This document shows, piece after piece, positions 1 through 9,338 of a DNA stretch of 40,069 bases. How positions within the stretch are numbered: the stretch's first letter is position 1; each line of letters opens with the position of its first letter. The position numbers were made by a program, and so were the translations under genes. The stretch comes from Candidatus Limnocylindria bacterium (GTDB lineage: Bacteria > Chloroflexota > Limnocylindria > QHBO01). The notes under the pieces were generated by a model. It ran no database searches. It saw only the letters and a program-made list of their open reading frames with translations, and had not been told where the DNA came from. The stretch lies in assembly GCA_041495495.1 (NCBI GenBank), contig JBGQCU010000003.1:1-40069 (forward strand), in the 5' to 3' direction.

Positions 1-1
1 C

Positions 2-1723
2 GATCCCACGCTGATCAGCAATGCCGAGATGGCGCGCGTCTTCAACGAGATCGCCGACATGCTGGAGATCTCCGGCGAGCTGGTCTACAAGGCGGTCGCC
101 TACCGTCGGGTGGCGGATGCGGTTGAGCGCTGGCCGGATGACGTCGCCCACCTGATCGTGGCCGGCGAGGCGCCCAAGATCCCGGGAGCCGGTCCGGCGT
201 TGAGCACCAAGCTGGCCGAGCTCGCCAGCACCGGACAGCTGGGCTACTACGACCGGATGCGCGCCCAGGTGCCGGCGGGGCTGCTCGAGATCCTGAAGAT
301 CCCCGGGGTTGGGCCGCGGACCGTCAAGCAGCTGCACGACGAGCTCGGCATCGAGTCGGTCGATGCACTCCGCGCGGCCGCCGAGGCCGGCACGCTGCGC
401 GGCGTGAAAGGCCTCTCGGCCCGGACCGAGGAGAACATCCTGGCCGCCATGGCGCGACAGGCAGCGCGCGGCACGCGCCTGCTGCTCCACGACGCCGACG
501 CCCTGATGGCCGGCCTCGTCGATCGGTTGCGCGAGGTGCCCGGTGTGCGCGCCATCGAGCCGGCCGGATCGCTCCGACGCCGCAAGGCGACCATCGGCGA
601 CCTGGACCTGTTGGCGGCGACCGATGACCCCGCCCGCCTGATCGCCGCGCTCGACGGCCTGCCCGGAGTCGAGGCGGTCCTCAGCGCGGGGAACGACAAG
701 TCGAGCATCGTGCTGGTCGACGGGCCCCAGGTCGACCTGATGGTCTGCCCGCCGGCCGCCTGGGGCAGCCACCTGGTCCACTTCACCGGCAGCAAGGAGC
801 ACAACGTCGCGCTGCGCGGGATGGCCCTGGAGCGTGGCCTCTCCCTGTCAGAGAAGGGCTTCAAGGTGGTCGACAGCGGCGCGCTGCAGCCGGTGGCGAC
901 CGAGGACGAGGTCTATGCGCGGCTCGGCCTGCCGTGGATCCCGCCCGAGCTGCGCGAGGACAGCGGCGAGATCCAGGCTGCGCTCGCAGGTCGCCTGCCG
1001 ACCCTCGTCAGCCTCACCGATCTGCGCGGCGACACGCACGTGCACTCGGACTGGACCGATGGGGTCGACTCGATCGAGGCGATGGCGCGCGCCGCCCGCG
1101 GGCTCGGCCACGAGTGGATCGTGCTGACCGACCACTCCCCGTCGCTGGGCATCACGCGTGGCCTGTCGGCCGAGCGGGTGGCCGAGCAGCGCGCGGAGAT
1201 CGACCGCCTCAACGTCGAGCTGGCTCCATTCCGCATCCTGCATGGCACGGAGATGGAGATCCGGGCTGACGCCACCCTCGACTATCCCGATGCGCTGCTC
1301 GCCGCTTTCGACCTGGTGGTGGCCAGCGTGCATACCGCCCGCGGGCAGTCGACCGAGCAGCTGACGCGCCGCACCCTGGCGGCGATCGACAACCCGCACG
1401 TTGACGTCATCGCGCACCCCACCGGCCGGATCGTCAACCGCCGCGACCCCATCGCCCTTGACTGGCCGCGCGTCTTCGAGGCCGCCGCCCGGACCGGCAC
1501 CGCGCTCGAGCTGAACGGCAGCCCGCGGCTTGACCTCGATGACGCGCTGGCGAGGGCCGCCGGACAGGCCGGCGCGCGCCTGACGCTGGCCAGCGACGCG
1601 CATCGGACCGAGGAGCTCGACCAGCTGCGCTACGCCGTCGCGATGGCGCGTCGCGCCTGGCTCAGCGCATCCCAGGTGATCGGCACGCGCAGCGCCGCCG
1701 AGCTGCTGGAGCTGGTGCGATGA
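2..1723 (+). CDS. polX: DNA polymerase X / PHP 3'-5' exonuclease (PolX); true start probably upstream of the window
   Basis: Frame is open from base 2 (DPTLISNAEMARVFNEIADMLE). Shows HhH IPGVGPRT, GSLRR..GDLD palm motif with VDL third Asp, HFTGSKEHN, and PHP motifs HVHSDWTDG, TDHS, AHPTGR and SDAH. Confidence 0.95.
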   Translation, partial: DPTLISNAEMARVFNEIADMLEISGELVYKAVAYRRVADAVERWPDDVAHLIVAGEAPKIPGAGPALSTKLAELASTGQLGYYDRMRAQVPAGLLEILKIPGVGPRTVKQLHDELGIESVDALRAAAEAGTLRGVKGLSARTEENILAAMARQAARGTRLLLHDADALMAGLVDRLREVPGVRAIEPAGSLRRRKATIGDLDLLAATDDPARLIAALDGLPGVEAVLSAGNDKSSIVLVDGPQVDLMVCPPAAWGSHLVHFTGSKEHNVALRGMALERGLSLSEKGFKVVDSGALQPVATEDEVYARLGLPWIPPELREDSGEIQAALAGRLPTLVSLTDLRGDTHVHSDWTDGVDSIEAMARAARGLGHEWIVLTDHSPSLGITRGLSAERVAEQRAEIDRLNVELAPFRILHGTEMEIRADATLDYPDALLAAFDLVVASVHTARGQSTEQLTRRTLAAIDNPHVDVIAHPTGRIVNRRDPIALDWPRVFEAAARTGTALELNGSPRLDLDDALARAAGQAGARLTLASDAHRTEELDQLRYAVAMARRAWLSASQVIGTRSAAELLELVR

Positions 1724-2496
1724 CCGCGGCCGGCGCCCGCGGTGAGCGGCTGTCCGCCAATCGGCGGCGCATTGAGCACCCCGAGGCGATCGTGCTGGCC
1801 CTGGTGGTCACCGGCCTGGCCGTCTATGGCTGGTTCGCGTCGCCCTTCTGGATGGCGGTGGCGATCGCGGCGCAGCTGGTTGTGGGCGGCCTGGGAGCGG
1901 TATGGGTCATCGGTCCGGTGCGGGCGCGGTTCGGCTTCGCACGGTATGGCACGTTCGCCGTGGCAGGCGCAGCCGCCACGTTGCTCGGCAGGTTGCTGGA
2001 GTCGGCCGCCCAGGTTGCCGCCGTGCCCGTGATCGCGGTGCTCCTCTTCGGCGTGCTGTGGCTGGAGCTGCGCCTCCCGGAGGGACGTTCACCACGCCTG
2101 GCCGTGGACCTCACCCTGGTCGGCATCGTCTTTGCGGCGGCCGCCGGGGTGGGGGCCACCTTCCCCGCCTTCTCCTGGCCGCCGACCGTGCTGCTGGTCG
2201 TCATCGCCGCCTCCGTTCCGGCGCTGCGCGCCGCCGAGCTGCGCGGACGCTACGGCGTCGAAGCGGTGGGGCAGGCGGTCCTGCACCTGCTGGCGATCGC
2301 ACAGCTGGGTGTCACCCTGGCGCTGCTGCACCTGCCCGGTGTCGTCGGAGCCGCGGTGCTTGCCCTCGGCTTCCATGCCTGGGCCGGCGCGGCAGAGGCC
2401 CTCGACAGTGGAGCTCGAGGTCGAGCGGTGCTCGTCGAATTCGGCAGCCTGGCGCTGCTGGGTCTGCTGGTCGCGCTCCTGCTGCGGCCGGCCTAA
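1720..2496 (+). CDS. Polytopic membrane protein of unknown function (about 8-9 TM), translationally coupled to polX
   Basis: ATGA overlap with polX stop; alternating hydrophobic segments over 258 aa; host-like codon style. Confidence 0.8.
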   Translation: MTAAGARGERLSANRRRIEHPEAIVLALVVTGLAVYGWFASPFWMAVAIAAQLVVGGLGAVWVIGPVRARFGFARYGTFAVAGAAATLLGRLLESAAQVAAVPVIAVLLFGVLWLELRLPEGRSPRLAVDLTLVGIVFAAAAGVGATFPAFSWPPTVLLVVIAASVPALRAAELRGRYGVEAVGQAVLHLLAIAQLGVTLALLHLPGVVGAAVLALGFHAWAGAAEALDSGARGRAVLVEFGSLALLGLLVALLLRPA

Positions 2497-2519
2497 GTTT
2501 CCCCCAGCCGACGTTCCAT

Positions 2520-3575
2520 TCACCGGCTCGAAGGCTTGGCGGATGGTGAGCTCCTTGGCTCAGGAGTTGGCTCAGGGCAGGACTGCCGCTCGGGTTCGAC
2601 AAGCCGGAATCGCAGCGTGAGGTGGACGGTCCGCGGCCAGCCGAGGACGCTGACCCGAACATCGAGGCTGTCGATCCCCTGGAAGCCCAACACCGGGGCG
2701 GGGTTCGACGGGTCGAAAGCGCTGCCGAGAGCGCAGGCGCCGGCACGCCCGACGAGCCAGATCGACTGGCCGCTGCGGGGCATGTCGAAGGGCGTAAATG
2801 GGCGGATCGGTCCGCTCATCCCACCGTTCGGCTCGCGGTCGATCCAAAGGGCCGTCGGCATCATTTCGGGGAGGAACGAGCGGGGATCCCGACCGAACAA
2901 GGGCGACACGATCCCCTCGATCCGGATGGGGAGCAGCCCGTCCGCCAAGAGGTAGAGCCCGACGCTGAAGCGGCCGTTCGCCGGGGCCAGCTCGTACAGC
3001 AGCTCCTCCCCCGAGCCGGGGACCTGCGGCGCCCTGACCGTGTTGAGGCCCAACCCGTAGCCGGAATCGAGAACCGTGACGGGAATGAGGGCTGCCACGA
3101 CAGCCCAGCCTGCGAGCACCACGGCGACTATGGCTGGGAAAAAACGCCGCCGCCCGCGGACGGTCATCGCCAGGATCCCCAGTGCGGCGCAGGCGAGCAC
3201 GACGGGGATGGCCGGTGATAGGTCATCGGTCCCGCTGACGCCGGGGCCCTGGAGCGTCGGATCGAAGGCCCCGACCGGAGACTCGACGGCGGATGCACTG
3301 GCGACCGTCCCGACGGGCGATGATGCGCCGGGACCGGTAGCTGGTCCGAGGTGGCGGGGCGCCGTGAGGCCGATGACGGCCACGAGAATGACCGCCGCGA
3401 GCCCGACCACGGCTGCGAACGGACGTCTCAGTTGTGACGGCTTGGTCGACTCGGCTTCTTCCGGGACGTCCTGCACCCATGATCGAAGCACGTCTGTGGC
3501 AGCGCCGGGATCGCGCCGGCGCAGCACCGTGCGCAGCTCGTCCTCGAGACGCGGATCGCCTGGCTGCCCGGTCAT
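2520..3575 (-). CDS. Putative membrane-anchored anti-sigma factor / sensor
   Basis: ATGA overlap with the ECF sigma stop. Short helical N-terminus (LEDELRTVLRRRDP), about 3 hydrophobic segments, and a C-terminal domain with two Cys and a Pro/Ser-rich tail. Anti-sigma role inferred from position. Confidence 0.65.
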   Translation of the reverse strand: MTGQPGDPRLEDELRTVLRRRDPGAATDVLRSWVQDVPEEAESTKPSQLRRPFAAVVGLAAVILVAVIGLTAPRHLGPATGPGASSPVGTVASASAVESPVGAFDPTLQGPGVSGTDDLSPAIPVVLACAALGILAMTVRGRRRFFPAIVAVVLAGWAVVAALIPVTVLDSGYGLGLNTVRAPQVPGSGEELLYELAPANGRFSVGLYLLADGLLPIRIEGIVSPLFGRDPRSFLPEMMPTALWIDREPNGGMSGPIRPFTPFDMPRSGQSIWLVGRAGACALGSAFDPSNPAPVLGFQGIDSLDVRVSVLGWPRTVHLTLRFRLVEPERQSCPEPTPEPRSSPSAKPSSR

Positions 3576-4141
3576 CGCTCTGCCACCTCGAGGGCGGTCC
3601 GCAGGCGCCCCATCGCGTGGTGCAACCGCGATTTCACCGTGCCCTCGGGGATCCTGAGCACCTCCGCGATGCCCGGGACGGTCAGGTCCGAGTAGAAGCG
3701 CAGCGTGACCACGACCTGTTCGTCGAGCGTCAGGCCGACGACCGCGCGGTCAAGCGCGTCACGCGCCGCTGTCGCCTCGGAGGCGTCTGCGATTCGCGGG
3801 TGCTCCGCCTCGATGAGCTTGCGACTGACGCCATCCCGGGCGCGCCTCGCGCGGTCCCGCAGCCGGTCCCGGCACTCGTTCACGAGGATCCGGCGGAACC
3901 ACGCGTCGAAGCGGGTCGGGTCGCGGAGGCCCGCGAAGCCACGCCAGGCGGCGACCGCCGCCTCATGGACCGCATCCTCGGCCTCAATGCGATCGTTGAG
4001 GATCACCCCGGCCAGTCGATAGGCTCCATCGAGCTGCCGGTCCACGAGTCCACGGAATGTGTCAGCCCGCAGGTCGGTGACCCGCAGCGCCTCGAGCCGC
4101 TTCTCGTCGCCAATCGGTTTCGCCACCAAGCTCCCCAGCAT
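3572..4141 (-). CDS. ECF RNA polymerase sigma-70 factor (189 aa; real gene is the 3' part of the 653-aa ORF)
   Basis: Region 2 (AYRLAGVIL..AEDAVHEA..FDAWFRRILVNEC) and region 4 (LRFYSDLT..IAEVLRIPEGTVKSRLHHA). ATG at 4141 has GGAGG about 9 nt upstream. Confidence 0.92.
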   Translation of the reverse strand: MLGSLVAKPIGDEKRLEALRVTDLRADTFRGLVDRQLDGAYRLAGVILNDRIEAEDAVHEAAVAAWRGFAGLRDPTRFDAWFRRILVNECRDRLRDRARRARDGVSRKLIEAEHPRIADASEATAARDALDRAVVGLTLDEQVVVTLRFYSDLTVPGIAEVLRIPEGTVKSRLHHAMGRLRTALEVAER

Positions 4142-4167
4142 CCGCTGTCGCCTCCGTTCATCCGATC

Positions 4168-4195
4168 TGACGAACCGGCATGGCGAATCGTTCGC
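4168..4195 (-). promoter_or_regulatory. Candidate ECF-type autoregulatory promoter GAAC-N17-CGTC
   Basis: Minus strand reads GCGAAC gattcgccatgccggtt CGTCA about 27 nt upstream of the sigma ATG; fits the generic ECF AAC/CGT consensus. Confidence 0.55.
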
Positions 4196-4289
4196 GAGGA
4201 TAGACGCTGGGGCACCTGACTCATAGAGCCGGACGTGTCCGGGTTCGCGGTCGTCTCTGTGGGGGCTCTCGTCCTTTCTCCGGTGCGCG

Positions 4290-4318
4290 TTGACACCCCT
4301 GTCGGGCTCTGCTACAAG
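4290..4318 (+). promoter_or_regulatory. Sigma-A-type promoter for the TPR / MTase-like operon
   Basis: Perfect TTGACA (4290-4295), 17-nt spacer, TGc-TACAAG extended -10 (4313-4318). Confidence 0.6.
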
Positions 4319-4399
4319 TAGGCGCCCTTCGGCCGGGTGACCGGATTCGGACGGGCATTTCGTGCATCTGGACCGCCTCACGGAGAGCCTGGGGAGACG

Positions 4400-5227
4400 A
4401 TGACGCTCGGAGAGACGGAGCCCACCAACCGGCAGCGTCGCCACCTTACCGAGGTCGCGATCGGGCAGGCCACGCGCGGCGAATGGGAGGCGGCAGTCGC
4501 CAGCAACCGCGAGATCCTGGAGCTGGGCGGCGACACCGATGCCTACAACCGGCTGGGCAAGGCGCTGGCAGAGCTGGGCCGCCACGCCGAGGCGCTGGAG
4601 GCGTACCAGGCCGCTCTGGCACGCGATGCCACCAATCGGATCGCGGAGCGCAACGTCGGGCGGCTGCGGGTCATCGCCGGCGGCGACGGAGCGGCGGTTG
4701 GCGACGGCAAGCCCGAGAAGGCATCCGCTGCGCATTTCATCGAGGAGATGGGCAAGACCGGCCACGCCCGCCTGATCAACTTGCTGCCGGCCAAGCAGCT
4801 CGCCCCGCTCTCCGCCGGCGATACCGTGGAGCTGGTCCTGGACGCCGGTCAACTGCTGGCCAGGGTGGGGGAGGTCGAGATCGGGCAGGTCGAGCCGCGC
4901 ATCGGCTCGCGGCTGGCCAAGCTCATGAAGGGCGGCAACCGCTACGAGGCGGCGATCACCACGGTCGACGGCCACGAGGTGCGGGTCATCATCCACGAGG
5001 CCTTCGCCAGCCCGTCCAATTTCGGCAAGGTCAGCTTCCCGGCAAGCGCCACGGGCCGGGCGAGTGACGTCAGGCCGTACATCAAGGGCACCCCGCTCCG
5101 CTACGATGACGAGGAGGAATCCGAGGAGTACGAGGAGGAGTCCGAGGAGGTCGAGGAGCTCGACACCACCCTTCCGGAGTTCTCCGCCGAACCCGACCTC
5201 GAGGAAGAGCTGCTCGAAGAACCGTAG
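4400..5227 (+). CDS. TPR protein with HIRAN-like beta-barrel domain and highly acidic C-terminal tail
   Basis: ATG 4400 after GGGGAG. About 2 TPRs (AYNRLGKALAELGRHAEALEAYQAAL), then FIEEMGKT, then LSAGDTVEL..IGQVEPRIGSRLAKLMKGGNRYEAAI (HIRAN-like by eye). 23 of the last 40 residues are D/E. Confidence 0.85.
   Translation: MTLGETEPTNRQRRHLTEVAIGQATRGEWEAAVASNREILELGGDTDAYNRLGKALAELGRHAEALEAYQAALARDATNRIAERNVGRLRVIAGGDGAAVGDGKPEKASAAHFIEEMGKTGHARLINLLPAKQLAPLSAGDTVELVLDAGQLLARVGEVEIGQVEPRIGSRLAKLMKGGNRYEAAITTVDGHEVRVIIHEAFASPSNFGKVSFPASATGRASDVRPYIKGTPLRYDDEEESEEYEEESEEVEELDTTLPEFSAEPDLEEELLEEP
5105..5224 (+). repeat. Low-complexity acidic tract (GAG-rich)
   Basis: DDEEESEEYEEESEEVEELD...LEEELLEEP; no K/R in the last 40 aa. 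Confidence 0.85.
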
Positions 5228-5235
5228 GAGCCCGA

Positions 5236-8088
5236 TTGAGCGAGGCCGAACGGAAGCGACTGGATCACGTCGTCCTTCCACGCCGCCTCCCCGGGCTCGC
5301 GCTGCTGGAGCGCTATTTCCCTTCGCCGGCCGATAACCAGCTCGACGCTGAGCTCTCCGCATTCGGCCGCCCCGGCGACACCGTCCTCGACCCATGGGCC
5401 GGCACCGGCTGGACCGCGCGCCGTGCGATCGCCCACGGCATGCGGGTGGTGGCCGCCGATCCGAGCCCCTTTGCGCAGCTCGCCGGACAGGCGTTCCTGC
5501 TCGCCCCGGAGCCCGCCGCGCTGGATGCGGCATTCGCCCAGCTCTCCGCCTCGCGGCGCGTCGACGTGCCGCTGCGCCAGCACCTCGAGGAGCTGTACGC
5601 CACCCGTTGCTCGACCTGCCGTCGCCCGGTCGTGGGCGATCAGTTCATCTGGCCGCGCGACGGCGACGCGCCGGGGCGGAAGGTGTACCACTGCCCCAAC
5701 TGCGACGTGTCGGTCGGCGGTCCGCAGGAACGGGTCGCGCCGATCGACGACGCTGATCTCGCCAAGCTTGGGATCGACCGTCCGGCCGATCCCGAGGCCA
5801 CCCTGCCGGTGGCGGACCCCGCGGCCGATGCCGAGGATGACCTGCCGCCGGCGCCGATCGGGCTGACCGCCATGCCGGATCCGGACGAGGACCCTGCTGC
5901 GCCGCATGAAGACCCCGCTGCGCCGATCGGCGAGGGGGGCGGTCCGCCCGCGCTGTCGCCGGCGCTGCCCGATCCGCCGACCGGGTCGTTGCGGTCCGGC
6001 CGCCCGCGCTTCGCCTCCACCGTCCATCCCGACCCGGCCCCCCAACCGCAGACCGATGTCCGCCAGAGCCTGCACTACCAGCAGCTGCGGGACCGGTTTC
6101 CGGTGCTTGACGGCCGAACTGAGCTGGTCGATGAGCTGCTCGACTTGTACACGCCGCGCAACCTGTACGCGCTGCAGACGATCGCCAACAAGATCGATGC
6201 CGAGTTCCGCGAGCCATCGCTGGCGGCCGTCTTCCGCGTGGCGCTGGCGGCCTGCCTGCTCCCCGGCAGCCGCCTGAACGGCTATCCCGGGCGGGTCGCC
6301 TCGCTGCGCATCAGCGGCGGGCACGTGCGCCAGCCGGCGTCGCGCCACCAGCGCGAGGTGAACGTCTGGCGCCTCTTCGAGTCGGCGGTCAGCGACGTCA
6401 GAACGGCGATCGTGGCGCTCGGCCGCGATCGCCGCCCCGCGCGCTTCGCGGCCGATCTGGACGAGCTGGGCGGCGTGGGGGCGGCCAACGTGCTCTGGAT
6501 CCGATGCCGTCCCGCGGTGGTCGGGCAGTATCTGCCGCCGGAGGGGGTCGACCTGGTGCTCGGCTCGCCCCCGCCCTCTGCGAGCGCCGACGAGATGAGC
6601 TTCGAATACCTCGCCACCGCCTGGCTGATGGGACGCGAGGCCGCAGAGACGCTGCGCCTCGAGCCGCTCTTCAGTGCGACCCAGAGCCGCGGCGAGCCCG
6701 CCGAGGGGACCGCCATGCGGCACGCCATGACGTCCGCAGCCGGAGCGCTGAAGCCGGGCGGCTGGTGCAACATCCTGATCGAGGGCGGTGACCTGGATCG
6801 GATGCTGGCGGTCGCCGTGGCCGCCGCCGCCGCGGATCTCGAGCTGGTGGACGTCATCCACCGCGAATCGGTCCGCTCGGGAGAGGGGATTGCGCTGCAC
6901 TTCCACAAGCCGTCGGCCGAGGATCGGCTGCGAACCGCCATCTCGTCCAACCCGCTCCAGCTCGGTGCCGAGGACGGGCATCTCACCTACCCGGACCTTG
7001 CCACGGCGATCGATCGGGCGGCGACGGCGCTCCTGAAGCGCCGCGGCGAGCCGGTCGGGCTGGTGCGCATCGGTGCCGCCGTGCTGGTGGAGCTGCAGCG
7101 CGCCGGCCTCCTGTCGCGCGTCTCCGCAGCCCGCGGCGCGGCACCTGGGCCGGAGGGATCCGAATCGGCTCCGGCGGAGGCCACCGACGCCGCGGAGCGG
7201 CCCGAGCGCGGCCCGAACATGCTGGCGACCCTCCTGCGCGAGGAGCTGGCGCGCGACGACCATCCGTCGCTGGTCCGTATCGGCGACGCGGATCGGCCCC
7301 TGTGGTGGCTGCGCCAGCCCGAGCTGAGCGAGACGCCGCTGGCAGATCGTGTCGAGTGGGCCACCTTCTCCGTCCTGACCACCGCCGGCCGGCTGGATGA
7401 GGCCGGCTTCCTGGAGCGGATCTACGCGCTCTTTCCGGGGCTGGAGGCTCCGGACGAGGAGCTGGTGCGGGCCTGCCTGGCGGCCTACGCCTTCGTCGGC
7501 GAGAAGGGGCTGCTGCGCACCGAGGAGGAGCTGGCGGGGCGCCAGGAGGACCACGCCCGGATCATCGGCACGCTGGTCGACTACGGGCACCGCCTGGGAC
7601 TGCGCGCCTGGGTCGGTCGCCACGAGCACGAGCGGCCGTATGCGGGGGCCAGCCTGCTCGAGCGGCTGCGCGACGATGAGCGCCGGGCCTACCTGCCGCT
7701 GATCGTGCGCGCCCCGGCCGCGTCCCTGGCGGCGATCGATGCGATCTGGTATGTGCGCGGCCGGATGGCCTTCATGTTCGACGTCGAATGGACCGCCATG
7801 CTCGGCGAGCCGATCCTGCGGCGCGGCCTGCAGATCGAGCCGACCGATCAACAGGCACGCTTCTGCGTCTTCCCGGCCGAGCGTACCGAGCTGCTCCGCC
7901 TGAAGCTGGACCGATCGCCGTGGCTGCGTGCCGAGGTCGCCCGCCAGAACTGGCACTTCCTGAAGTGGCAGCACCTGGAAGGGCTGGCGGCGCGCGATGG
8001 CGCCAGCCTGGACTGGCTGGAGCCGGTGCTGGGGCTCGATCCGCTGATCGAGCGCGGAGGCGAGCAGCTCACCATGTTCGGGGAGTAG
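5236..8088 (+). CDS. Large DNA amino-methyltransferase-fold protein with Zn ribbon and C-terminal PD-(D/E)xK-like domain; catalytic motif IV degenerate
   Basis: TTG start after AGGAG overlapping the upstream stop. Motifs: VLDPWAGTG (motif I), CSTC/CPNC, LYTPRNLYAL, VDLVLGSPPP (in place of DPPY), LKPGG, H..I..L..YG..LG...W, IDAIW..FDVEWT. C-terminus EQLTMFGE. Confidence 0.8.
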   Translation: MSEAERKRLDHVVLPRRLPGLALLERYFPSPADNQLDAELSAFGRPGDTVLDPWAGTGWTARRAIAHGMRVVAADPSPFAQLAGQAFLLAPEPAALDAAFAQLSASRRVDVPLRQHLEELYATRCSTCRRPVVGDQFIWPRDGDAPGRKVYHCPNCDVSVGGPQERVAPIDDADLAKLGIDRPADPEATLPVADPAADAEDDLPPAPIGLTAMPDPDEDPAAPHEDPAAPIGEGGGPPALSPALPDPPTGSLRSGRPRFASTVHPDPAPQPQTDVRQSLHYQQLRDRFPVLDGRTELVDELLDLYTPRNLYALQTIANKIDAEFREPSLAAVFRVALAACLLPGSRLNGYPGRVASLRISGGHVRQPASRHQREVNVWRLFESAVSDVRTAIVALGRDRRPARFAADLDELGGVGAANVLWIRCRPAVVGQYLPPEGVDLVLGSPPPSASADEMSFEYLATAWLMGREAAETLRLEPLFSATQSRGEPAEGTAMRHAMTSAAGALKPGGWCNILIEGGDLDRMLAVAVAAAAADLELVDVIHRESVRSGEGIALHFHKPSAEDRLRTAISSNPLQLGAEDGHLTYPDLATAIDRAATALLKRRGEPVGLVRIGAAVLVELQRAGLLSRVSAARGAAPGPEGSESAPAEATDAAERPERGPNMLATLLREELARDDHPSLVRIGDADRPLWWLRQPELSETPLADRVEWATFSVLTTAGRLDEAGFLERIYALFPGLEAPDEELVRACLAAYAFVGEKGLLRTEEELAGRQEDHARIIGTLVDYGHRLGLRAWVGRHEHERPYAGASLLERLRDDERRAYLPLIVRAPAASLAAIDAIWYVRGRMAFMFDVEWTAMLGEPILRRGLQIEPTDQQARFCVFPAERTELLRLKLDRSPWLRAEVARQNWHFLKWQHLEGLAARDGASLDWLEPVLGLDPLIERGGEQLTMFGE
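5779..6054 (+). repeat. Pro/Asp/Ala-rich low-complexity linker inside the MTase-like protein
   Basis: RPADPEATLPVADPAADAEDDLPPAP...EDPAAPHEDPAAP...; EDPAAP occurs twice in tandem. Confidence 0.7.
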
Positions 8089-8123
8089 TCGCGGCCGAAA
8101 GCCCTCCGGCGTAGACTCGCCGC

Positions 8124-8156
8124 GGGAGTGCCGTGGTTCCCCCCCGCGGCACTCCC
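8124..8156. other. 13-bp hairpin with TTCCCCC loop between convergent genes (terminator or small RNA)
   Basis: GGGAGTGCCGTGG-TTCCCCC-CCGCGGCACTCCC with one G-U pair; no U-tract on either strand; TAGACT lies 6 nt upstream on the + strand. Confidence 0.6.
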
Positions 8157-8181
8157 AAGCACGTGCGCGGGAGCTCGGGAG

Positions 8182-8520
8182 CTAGGCGCGCGGCCCCTTC
8201 GGACGGGCCGCTCGCCTCCCCAGCGCACGTCGCACCACGGTCATCACCTCGTCGACGTAGGGCTGCCCCTGGCCGACCTCGATGGCGTGCGCCAGGCATC
8301 CGTCGATGTGGTCCTCGAGCAGCAGCAGGGCGACGCTGTCGGCGGCGGCCGTCATCGCCTCGACCTGCTGCAGGACGTCCAGGCAATAGGCCTCGTCCTC
8401 GACCAGGCGCTCGATACCGCGCACCTGGCCCTCGATCCGGCGCAGCCGGTTCAGCAGCTCTCCCCGATCCTTGCTGTAGGAGTGGCGGAAGTGATCGGCC
8501 GTGTGCATGTTGCTGGTCAT
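8182..8520 (-). CDS. csoR: CsoR/RcnR-family metal-sensing repressor (C-H-C fingerprint, likely Cu(I))
   Basis: RLRRIEGQVRGI, YCLDVLQQ and EDHIDGC motifs. Start ATG 8520 (alternative 8508). Confidence 0.9.
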   Translation of the reverse strand: MTSNMHTADHFRHSYSKDRGELLNRLRRIEGQVRGIERLVEDEAYCLDVLQQVEAMTAAADSVALLLLEDHIDGCLAHAIEVGQGQPYVDEVMTVVRRALGRRAARPKGPRA

Positions 8521-8560
8521 ACTCGGGGGTAGTATGTGGAGGCGGACCGCCATCGGTCAA
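8518..8560 (-). promoter_or_regulatory. csoR promoter (TTGACC-18-CATACT) with overlapping CsoR/RcnR-type operator CATACT-CGGGGGT-AGTATG
   Basis: 6-bp inverted repeat flanking a G-tract (8518-8536) matches the established TACT-G-tract-AGTA architecture of RcnR/CsoR operators. Confidence 0.75.
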
Positions 8561-8609
8561 TCGCGGCGCGCCGGGTCAACCCGCCGTTCGCGCTACGATG
8601 CGCCGAGCC

Positions 8610-9338
8610 ATGCCCGACCTTGAACGCCACGAGCTGATCCAGCCTCTCGAACGAGCCCTGGTCATCTTCAGTCATCCGGATGACGCCGAGTTCGGTGCGG
8701 CGGCGACCATCGCCCACCTGACCGCCGCCGGCGCCCGGGTCGACTACGTGGTGACGACCGATGGCGGCAAGGGGACCGAGGACCCCGCGGTCACCTCGGC
8801 GCAGCTGACGTCCCTGCGCGAGGCCGAGCAGCGCGCCGCGGCTGACGTGCTGGGCGTCACCGAGATCGTGCACCTCGGCTACCCCGATGGCTACCTCGAG
8901 CCGACCCTCGCCCTGCGGCGCGACATCGTGCGCCAGGTCCGTCGCTTCCGGCCCGACCTGGTGATCGCCCAGAACCCGCTGCGCCGCCAGGACGGCAACC
9001 CGTTCATCGGCCACCCCGATCACCTGGCCACCGGGGAGGCGACCCTGGCCGCGGTGTATCCCGCTGCGCGCGACCGGCTCAACTTCCCGCAGCTGCTGTC
9101 CGAGGGGCTCGAGCCGTGGAAGGTGCGCCAGATCCTCGTCAGTGGGGTGGAGCGGCCGAACCTGTTCATCGACGTCTCGAGCACGTTTGAGATCGGGCTG
9201 CAGGCCCTCTTCTGCCATGCCAGCCAGATCTCGGACCCGGCCGCCGTCGAGGAGCGGGTGCGACAGCGTGCGGTGGAGCTGGGCGAGCCGGTCGGCCTCG
9301 AGCTGGCCAACGCCTTCCTGTCGATCCTGATCGGCTGA
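8610..9338 (+). CDS. PIG-L / LmbE / MshB-family N-deacetylase
   Basis: HPDDAE, TDGGKG, REAEQ and HPDH motifs intact; ATG 8610 lies 10 nt after TACGAT. Confidence 0.9.
   Translation: MPDLERHELIQPLERALVIFSHPDDAEFGAAATIAHLTAAGARVDYVVTTDGGKGTEDPAVTSAQLTSLREAEQRAAADVLGVTEIVHLGYPDGYLEPTLALRRDIVRQVRRFRPDLVIAQNPLRRQDGNPFIGHPDHLATGEATLAAVYPAARDRLNFPQLLSEGLEPWKVRQILVSGVERPNLFIDVSSTFEIGLQALFCHASQISDPAAVEERVRQRAVELGEPVGLELANAFLSILIG

Follow-up and report, generated by a model that had tools for sequence, protein, structure and literature searches.

Partners of the bacterial sliding clamp determine the fate of newly made DNA, and to our knowledge very few partner families are known beyond polymerases, ligase, MutS/MutL, Hda and NucS. 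NucS/EndoMS, the clamp-dependent mismatch endonuclease of Actinobacteria and Archaea, has a restriction-enzyme-like nuclease fold. Binding of NucS to the clamp is reported in PMC9690074, which gives QL(S/D)LF as the bacterial clamp-binding consensus. The type II restriction enzyme R.NmeDI of Neisseria meningitidis is described as a stand-alone protein of 351 amino acids (aa), whose gene shares a restriction-modification operon with the adjacent gene of its methyltransferase (PMC2095814). Here we describe an uncharacterised 950-aa protein that resembles both, encoded within positions 2–8088 of a 40,069-nucleotide (nt) stretch of DNA from a Candidatus Limnocylindria bacterium (contig JBGQCU010000003.1, assembly GCA_041495495.1); this whole stretch is called the window below.

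The protein appears to join a body derived from restriction-modification enzymes to a conserved C-terminal peptide of the clamp-binding type, and its gene follows polX, a gene for a multi-transmembrane (multi-TM) protein and a gene for a tetratricopeptide repeat (TPR) protein with a HIRAN-like barrel. We read it as a candidate clamp-tethered DNA-maintenance factor derived from a restriction-modification enzyme; the whole of this reading, including incision or end processing and cooperation with PolX, has in our estimate a probability of roughly 0.5. An earlier, sequence-only reading had interpreted the region as a replication-coupled DNA-maintenance module, and this interpretation was partly supported overall.

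Architecture of the 950-aa protein

The 950-aa gene and the features of its product are as follows.

5236..8088, + strand: 950-aa gene, encoding a methyltransferase fold, a Zn ribbon, a winged-helix-like region, an NmeDI_C-like domain and a clamp motif
5257..6915, + strand: class-I methyltransferase fold with large inserts, residues 8–560 (motif I, DPWAGTG, 52–58; motif IV position, SPPP, 444–447)
5608..5703, + strand: Zn ribbon CxxC...CxxC (C125, C128, C153, C156), inserted in the methyltransferase fold, from residue conservation
5806..6048, + strand: disordered Pro/Asp-rich insert, residues 191–271, predicted local distance difference test score (pLDDT) below 50
6988..7515, + strand: helical, winged-helix-like middle region, residues 585–760, from the secondary structure of the model
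7531..7989, + strand: NmeDI_C-type restriction-nuclease-like domain, residues 766–918, from precomputed PF27126 matches on homologs, the ESM Atlas and the model
8065..8079, + strand: QLTMF motif of the beta-clamp-binding type, residues 944–948, from motif conservation and a model with DnaN

A word-seeded search revealed 729 proteins at E ≤ 0.001 among 8000 scored candidates, and the best 120 of these 729 were 69–93% identical to the 950-aa protein. The names given among these 120 listed matches were 'hypothetical protein', from metagenome-assembled genomes (MAGs) of Chloroflexota or Limnocylindria, with a few assigned to other phyla. HMMER, run exhaustively over 1.84 billion cluster representatives, gave 1266 matches at E ≤ 0.001, 728 at ≤ 1e-10 and 196 at ≤ 1e-30; when ten distant clusters were looked up, their named members were mostly 'hypothetical protein' and two were annotated as DNA methyltransferases. 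When the 950-aa protein was scanned with Pfam, NCBIfam, PADLOC and PHROGs, only sub-threshold matches at the motif I region came up, and literature searches found no published description of the family.

Residue conservation was read from an alignment of the query and 52 homologs chosen from the best 150 HMMER matches (n = 53; about 750–985 aa, apparently full length, fragments excluded). Eight residues were invariant (C125, C128, C153, R308, E374, W378, W838 and W906) and four were near-invariant (C156, N376, R883 and Q944, at least 90%). An AlphaFold2 model built on this alignment reached a pLDDT of 85.8 and a predicted template modelling score of 0.85. The insert at residues 191–271 is missing from the shorter homologs of 750–860 aa.

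Fold searches with the whole model recovered the methyltransferase fold only, in rows spanning residues 14–561, and indicated a class-I Rossmann-like methyltransferase (Foldseek E about 1e-3). Motif I of the window copy, D52-P-W-A-G56-T-G58, fits the (D/E)xFxGxG pattern of the S-adenosylmethionine loop, and the motif IV position reads S444-P-P-P447, without the aromatic residue of (D/N/S)PP(Y/F/W). The description of the protein as a 'pseudo-methyltransferase' in the sequence-only reading thus stood for motif IV and not for motif I, where the window copy keeps G-x-G. Judged by motif, most family members, the window copy included, have lost the canonical methyltransferase catalytic motif.

The identification of the C-terminal domain came from several sources. 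Precomputed PF27126 matches were present on 42 of the best 120 of the 729 homologs, one of them 93% identical to the query, and the ESM Atlas names PF27126 as 'NmeDI_C', the C-terminal domain of the type II restriction enzyme NmeDI. The Atlas cluster nearest to residues 580–950 carries NmeDI_C, with a score of 0.89 and 187 of 256 features in common; comparison of the C-terminal profile with PDB sequences gave chance-level matches only (best E 1.8). In the model, residues 766–918 follow the order alpha-beta-beta-beta-alpha-beta (helix 766–786, strands 790–793, 836–840 and 843–850, helix 857–866, strand 874–879), with D835 where the second strand begins and D849 and E851 where the third ends. 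D835, D849 and E851 occupy putative PD-(D/E)xK-like positions, with the lysine replaced by glutamate. D835 was conserved in 44 of the 53 homologs, R883 in 52 and W838 in all; position 849, D in the window copy, was E in 18.

Short proteins of about 365–375 aa in other Chloroflexota match only the nuclease-like core (L107:3308-4435, L106:3850-4941, L108:3971-5098). In one such NmeDI-like protein the N-terminus is an EVE domain, a reader of modified bases known from type IV restriction-like proteins, and this fusion fits the role of a nuclease effector module for the domain. The methyltransferase fold and the NmeDI_C domain together support the earlier proposal of a restriction-modification derivation, and the 950-aa protein looks like a vertically inherited, single-copy descendant of a fused restriction-modification enzyme.

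C-terminal motif and predicted docking on DnaN

The 950-aa protein ends in ...EQLTMFGE, so that QLTMF (944–948) stands two residues from the end. The pattern Q[LIM]x[LMIF][FLWIM] was found within the last 25 residues in 46 of the 53 homologs, at the very C-terminus in 29, and only four times in the other 42,868 residues of the same proteins. Six of the seven exceptions had variants such as QLAFRW, and one (P0323) had none. Among 37 genome-translated homologs, whose gene ends were roughly called, 27 had the strict motif, 6 had variants and 4 were without it. The peptide fits the published QL(S/D)LF consensus (PMC9690074), and the DinB homolog of the same genome (L109:1477-2688) carries QLTLF. 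In this DinB homolog the motif is not at the very end but lies about 55 residues before the C-terminus, followed by an extra charged tail.

A complex of residues 761–950 (30-row alignment) with two copies of the genome's own DnaN (27-row alignment) was modelled together with three controls. The score was 0.70, compared with 0.00 for the best control; the runs agreed in at least 86% of contacts, and the pLDDT of the partner was at least 80. The mark used for this score was reached by 116 of 157 solved complexes and by 2 of 215 mismatched pairs. Modelled contacts connected residues 940–950 with DnaN residues 152, 172–177, 245–250, 280–283, 324–326, 350–352 and 366–373, which we take, from solved clamps, to line the cleft between domains II and III. 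The model supports clamp binding by the C-terminal peptide without demonstrating it, and we hold that the 950-aa protein probably does bind the clamp. The C-terminal clamp tag proposed from the sequence was thus borne out in the homologs, and docking in the DnaN cleft is predicted.

Gene order around polX

Six genes were found in positions 2–8088, four on the + strand in two translationally coupled pairs and two on the − strand between the pairs.

2..1723, + strand: polX (DNA polymerase/3'-5' exonuclease PolX), 573 aa visible, truncated at its 5' end by the start of the window
1720..2496, + strand: gene for a 258-aa multi-TM protein, its start overlapping the polX stop in ATGA
2520..3575, − strand: anti-sigma-like membrane protein, 351 aa, overlapping the stop of the sigma gene
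3572..4141, − strand: extracytoplasmic function (ECF) sigma factor, about 189 aa from the ATG at 4141, with Sigma70_r2, Sigma70_r4_2 and TIGR02937
4400..5227, + strand: TPR/HIRAN-like/acidic-tail protein gene, 275 aa, from the ATG at 4400
4727..5005, + strand: HIRAN-like beta-barrel, residues 110–202 of the 275-aa protein, from Foldseek
5045..5224, + strand: acidic C-terminal tail, disordered (pLDDT below 50 for residues 216–271), with LEEP at its end
5226..5238, + strand: overlap of AGGAG and the TAG stop, 5-nt spacer and TTG start of the 950-aa gene, read from the sequence

All six genes lay where the sequence-only reading had placed them, and the co-orientation and pairwise coupling of the four + strand genes were confirmed. 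PolX was identified by the NCBIfam equivalog NF006375 (E 1.8e-143; 479.2 bits against a cut-off of 426) and by the Pfam domains DNA_pol_B_thumb, HHH_8 and PHP, that is, the Pol-beta-like core and PHP domain of bacterial PolX. A hydropathy scan of the multi-TM protein revealed eight hydrophobic segments, and scans with Pfam, NCBIfam, PADLOC and PHROGs gave no family match. The ECF sigma factor matched Sigma70_r2 (9.6e-12), Sigma70_r4_2 (1.6e-11) and TIGR02937 (89 bits against a cut-off of 42.9). The true start of the TPR gene is the ATG at 4400, and the resulting 275 aa equals the length of close homologs; its TAG stop (5225–5227) overlaps AGGAG, located 5 nt upstream of the TTG of the 950-aa gene at 5236. 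The GC content of the window is 71% and stays at 0.69–0.73 over positions 1–9000, without a composition shift; no tRNA genes were found in the window, and no mobile-looking genes were among its annotated genes up to 21027. The earlier statement that neither mobile genes nor a compositional shift accompany the TPR and 950-aa genes therefore held. Directly after the 950-aa gene the window contains a PIG-L deacetylase-domain gene (8133–9338).

The region was compared by tblastn with loci of related genomes, all of them MAGs or representative genomes, in which genes were called with a simple in-house picker of open reading frames. The tallies here and below include a few genomes flagged as unpublished (G017, G209, G076, G192 and G256), and no conclusion rests on them alone. 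In all ten same-genus loci that reached far enough (L002-L009, L011 and L012; the truncated L010 was set aside), the multi-TM gene directly precedes the TPR and 950-aa genes, and the contiguous order polX-TM-TPR-950 was present in both loci from other genera of the same family, f1 (L051, L052). Sigma or anti-sigma matches were found in none of these twelve loci, so the ECF sigma/anti-sigma pair is an insertion specific to the window's genome that splits the ancestral cluster.

All eight loci of a second family, f3, have the TPR gene immediately before the 950-aa homolog, and polX lies upstream on the same strand, 1–3 kb away, in all except L018; the intervening gene encodes a membrane protein with 7–9 segments in the four loci scanned (L013, L014, L016, L020). 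One gene of about 590–660 aa separates the TPR gene and the 950-aa homolog in all five f2 and f5 loci, and the two are about 1.7 kb apart in the single f4 locus. The arrangement of the cluster is more than chance, and the polX linkage, which the sequence-only reading had rated its weakest part, is conserved across the class Limnocylindria, in two families, and confined to that class. Some f3 loci have extra genes between polX and the TPR gene, for a HipA_2-like kinase (L050:4140-4982) or a DUF3037 protein (L019:11007-11969), and a DUF885 gene of about 560–580 aa lies directly downstream of the 950-aa homolog in f3 and f4 loci (L013:4828-6507, L015:9875-11575, L025:4912-6642).

Distribution of the 950-aa family and of mismatch-repair genes

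With a C-terminal profile, exactly one match to the 950-aa family was found in 60 of 61 genomes of the class, and in 55 of the 56 of high quality; a search with the full-length protein gave matches in 39 of 41 relatives. Across the phylum the family was present in 53 of 201 genomes, six of these being weak matches to short NmeDI-like proteins. At 24 loci outside the class the neighbours (59 proteins scanned) were FtsY, Lon, glycosyltransferases, amylases, thioredoxin and similar housekeeping proteins. In both genomes of family f20, a gene for an MrfA-type helicase with DEAD, MZB/MrfA Zn-binding and HRQ1 winged-helix domains lies directly downstream of the homolog (L029:4472-6736, L048:5182-7446); in L048 the two genes share 4 bases at the 3' end of the homolog.

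The only restriction-like gene among the 59 scanned neighbours was one for a PLD-family/DpnI_C-type endonuclease, directly upstream of the homolog in one locus (L035:8331-9182). PADLOC on the 950-aa protein gave weak partial matches, MTase_II at 1.6e-7 and mad2 at 1.5e-5, both to residues 36–105 only and falling short at the system level. A defence island was rejected in view of these partial matches, the housekeeping neighbours and the single copy in the class genomes; the earlier view of a domesticated enzyme rather than a defence-island component agrees with a vertically inherited core gene amid housekeeping neighbours.

Mismatch-repair profiles were distributed as follows.

MutS_I, class sample: 0/61 genomes
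MutL_C, class sample: 0/61 genomes
MutL_C, whole phylum sample: 171/201 genomes
NucS_C, class sample: 3/61 genomes, weak, E 3.5e-9 to 7.7e-6

In the window's own genome NucS_C gave nothing above the cut-off, and the only MutS-like gene was a MutS2 with MutS_V and Smr domains (L055:2054-4507). Most base-excision glycosylases are reported as lost in Limnocylindraceae, a family of this class, in PMC13212565, the main text of which makes no mention of mutS, mutL or polX; its supplements may list repair genes. The absence of known mismatch-repair genes from the class suggests that the cluster may be a new DNA-maintenance route. A strict replacement of mismatch repair by phyletic complementarity was rejected, the 950-aa family coexisting with MutL in f7, f11, f16, f20 and f23.

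The TPR/HIRAN-like protein

The model of the TPR protein (pLDDT 73) consists of TPR helices (residues 6–94), a beta-barrel (120–202) and a disordered acidic tail (216–275), and the tail was present in 14/14 aligned homologs. Foldseek related the barrel weakly to the HIRAN domain of HLTF, with E values from 3.6e-3 to 1.3e-2 and template modelling scores by target of 0.53–0.62 (4s0n_D, E 3.6e-3, 0.53; 4xzg_A, E 5.1e-3, 0.60; 6kcs_A, 0.62), and, also weakly, to 3k2y_C (E 2.9e-3, 0.68). Pfam HIRAN gave no match in the protein at E ≤ 0.1, VIA-align returned TPR chains only, with binders of the acidic C-terminal Hsp90 peptide MEEVD on top, and the Atlas matches were unnamed Chloroflexota clusters only; the barrel is therefore HIRAN-like by fold only, and at this level the HIRAN-like assignment made from the sequence was upheld. 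The conserved tail end is L-E-E-P (5213–5224 in the window), and the TPR domain resembles binders of acidic C-terminal peptides; binding of the protein to its own tail, or oligomerisation, is conceivable.

A profile covering the barrel plus the RPYxKGT segment after it matched 162 of 201 Chloroflexota genomes, with a single match in 160 of them, and gave no match in f11 (0/13), f14 (0/4) or f22 (0/11). The TPR protein and the 950-aa family (53/201) are distributed independently: in f11, the 950-aa protein was found in 12/13 genomes and the HIRAN-like protein in none. The two proteins may form the complex that was proposed earlier; an obligate pair was rejected in view of the independent distribution and of the absence of the TPR protein near all 24 homolog loci outside the class.

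Among 20 loci from other lineages with annotated neighbours, the TPR-protein homolog lies directly upstream of gyrA, with almost no gap, in six (L059, L061, L067, L070, L071, L073), and a gene of gyrA-like size, identified by size only, stands at the same place in L060 and L072. In eight others it lies directly downstream of a gene for a MiaB-like radical-SAM methylthiotransferase (L056-L058, L063, L066, L068, L069, L075), and four of these loci (L056-L058 and L069) in addition have a PucR-type regulator downstream of it. The independent distribution and the adjacency to gyrA elsewhere both indicate that the TPR protein is not an obligate partner of the 950-aa protein. It is a phylum-wide protein with DNA-related neighbours, placed beside the 950-aa gene only in Limnocylindria, and gyrase is a possible target of it, given its DNA-mimic-like acidic tail.

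Discussion

The data above establish domain architecture, conserved residues, gene order and occurrence, whereas docking on the clamp is a prediction. We infer for the 950-aa protein a nuclease activity, a DNA substrate and a cooperation with PolX and the HIRAN-like protein, in the following way. QLTMF would tether the protein to the beta sliding clamp left on DNA, behind the fork or at repair gaps, where the base-flipping methyltransferase fold and the winged-helix-like region would read the DNA. In this class, which retains the acidic triad, the nuclease-like domain would cut DNA or hold on to it, so that the protein would recognise and incise DNA or process its ends; gap filling would then fall to PolX, and binding of DNA (3') ends by the HIRAN-like protein may help. 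A bolder version, which we hold to be unlikely, makes the protein the missing post-replicative error- or lesion-correction nuclease: the clamp-riding, disabled methyltransferase would find the mismatch or damage, the NmeDI-type domain would incise, and 3'-end capture would be the part of the HIRAN-like protein and resynthesis that of PolX.

Several observations weigh against the favoured reading. In the alignment, the glycines of motif I were kept in 6/53 (G56) and 15/53 (G58) homologs, and at motif IV P445 and P446 were kept in 43/53 and 50/53, followed by tyrosine in only 4/53. E851 was kept in only 23/53, and the 'K' position is a glutamate in the window copy, so the nuclease active site stays putative. 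As many homologs have lost the canonical catalytic motifs in both of the enzyme-like domains, the family-wide function may be non-catalytic. The linkage did not extend beyond the class: a PolX or TPR-protein match near the 950-aa homolog was found at 0/24 outside loci (L026-L049; 6–8 kb each side). In f11, MutL is present in 13/13 genomes and the 950-aa protein in 12/13; with such coexistence, the family is not a simple replacement of mismatch repair. Finally, many clamp-peptide complexes have been solved, and the pass of the DnaN model may reflect likeness to them.

The main rival, also unlikely in our judgement, is a non-catalytic adaptor or regulator of clamps and DNA in which both enzyme-like domains are dead and which marks, holds or unloads clamps or recruits factors. 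The residues invariant in the family are the Zn-ribbon cysteines, R308, E374, W378, W838 and W906, and the catalytic motifs are not among them. Members of the f11/f35 type lack the acidic residues 849 and 851 yet keep the C-terminal motif; the window's class and the group of 860-aa homologs still have this acidic pair, and the window copy and its class retain both the G-x-G of motif I and the D835/D849/E851 triad. The tight linkage to PolX in the class, and to the MrfA-type helicase in f20, suggests DNA processing.

A replication-coupled DNA (or RNA) methyltransferase that acts from the clamp on new DNA, as a bacterial analogue of DNMT1-PCNA, is less probable still. Its class-I fold, the DPWAGTG motif I kept in the clade and the clamp motif would suit this role, and three distant homologs (P0377, P0382, P0395) keep both GSG and DPPY, which argues that the family descends from a real amino-methyltransferase; retrieval of loci related to the DPPY-bearing P0382 gave a single weak 1.8-kb fragment. 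The SPPP of motif IV lacks the aromatic residue, with tyrosine at this place as rare in the family as noted above, most homologs are without the G-x-G loop, and Pfam N6_N4_Mtase scored 14.4 bits, short of its gathering score of 26.7.

We give an equally low weight to the view that the QLxLF peptide binds a partner other than the clamp and that the cluster is a conserved gene order without common function. Clamp binding is deduced from a model, the neighbouring TPR domain resembles peptide-binding TPRs such as those that bind the Hsp90 peptide, and the TPR protein has other conserved neighbours elsewhere (gyrA, the MiaB-like gene). The clamp motif is nevertheless kept in f11, where the TPR protein is absent from 13/13 genomes, and the partner of the motif is therefore not the TPR protein. 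QLTMF also agrees with the bacterial consensus QL(S/D)LF (PMC9690074), resembles the QLTLF of DinB and makes its modelled contacts in the DnaN cleft region. An active restriction-modification or other anti-phage defence enzyme next to polX by chance is very improbable: the weak PADLOC matches to MTase_II and mad2, the restriction-enzyme origin of NmeDI_C and the PLD/DpnI_C gene in L035 stand against a single copy at a conserved position in 60/61 class genomes, housekeeping neighbours at 24 outside loci, degenerate catalytic motifs and surroundings free of composition shifts, tRNA genes and mobile-looking genes.

What is new here is an uncharacterised family that seems to join a restriction-modification-derived body to a conserved clamp tag and that is a core gene of a class of soil and freshwater bacteria. 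The clamp-tethered factor that we favour is a candidate for how lineages without detected MutS1/MutL keep their genomes, and a possible case of a defence enzyme domesticated into chromosome maintenance. If it were the missing correction nuclease, it would represent a third, independently evolved route of clamp-coupled mismatch or lesion repair. The TPR/HIRAN-like protein, which almost all Chloroflexota have and which neighbours gyrA in some lineages, would be a second uncharacterised DNA-associated factor.

Comparison with known systems

The barrel of the TPR protein is similar to the small HIRAN beta-barrel of HLTF/Rad5 (scores by target 0.53–0.68), but it occurs together with a TPR domain and an acidic tail instead of a SWI/SNF helicase, and is without a Pfam HIRAN match. 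For the 950-aa protein, the nearest relative of the C-terminal domain is R.NmeDI, which shares the Pfam family PF27126 as judged by the precomputed matches of homologs and the Atlas name; in the 950-aa protein, however, the domain is fused behind a methyltransferase fold, tagged with a clamp motif and located in a core housekeeping locus. The single-chain type IIG/IIC enzymes likewise carry an amino-methyltransferase-type fold and a PD-(D/E)xK-like domain on one polypeptide, whereas the 950-aa protein has a degenerate motif IV, a single copy, vertical inheritance and a C-terminal clamp motif.

In DNMT1-PCNA, used here by analogy, and in MutL-beta, a DNA-modifying or DNA-cutting fold is brought to the sliding clamp by a short terminal peptide, as we propose for the 950-aa protein, which belongs to a different family and whose activity we only infer. 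With NucS/EndoMS it has in common a putative restriction-enzyme-like nuclease fold, a C-terminal clamp motif and occurrence in lineages without MutS/MutL. It differs from NucS in being four times larger and without sequence relation, in adding a methyltransferase fold, a Zn ribbon and a winged-helix-like region, in having a nuclease-like domain of the NmeDI_C type, and in coexisting with MutL in other Chloroflexota. By analogy, the 950-aa protein would work most like NucS/EndoMS or MutL, as a clamp-recruited nuclease, and it recalls DNMT1-PCNA, yet it belongs to none of these.

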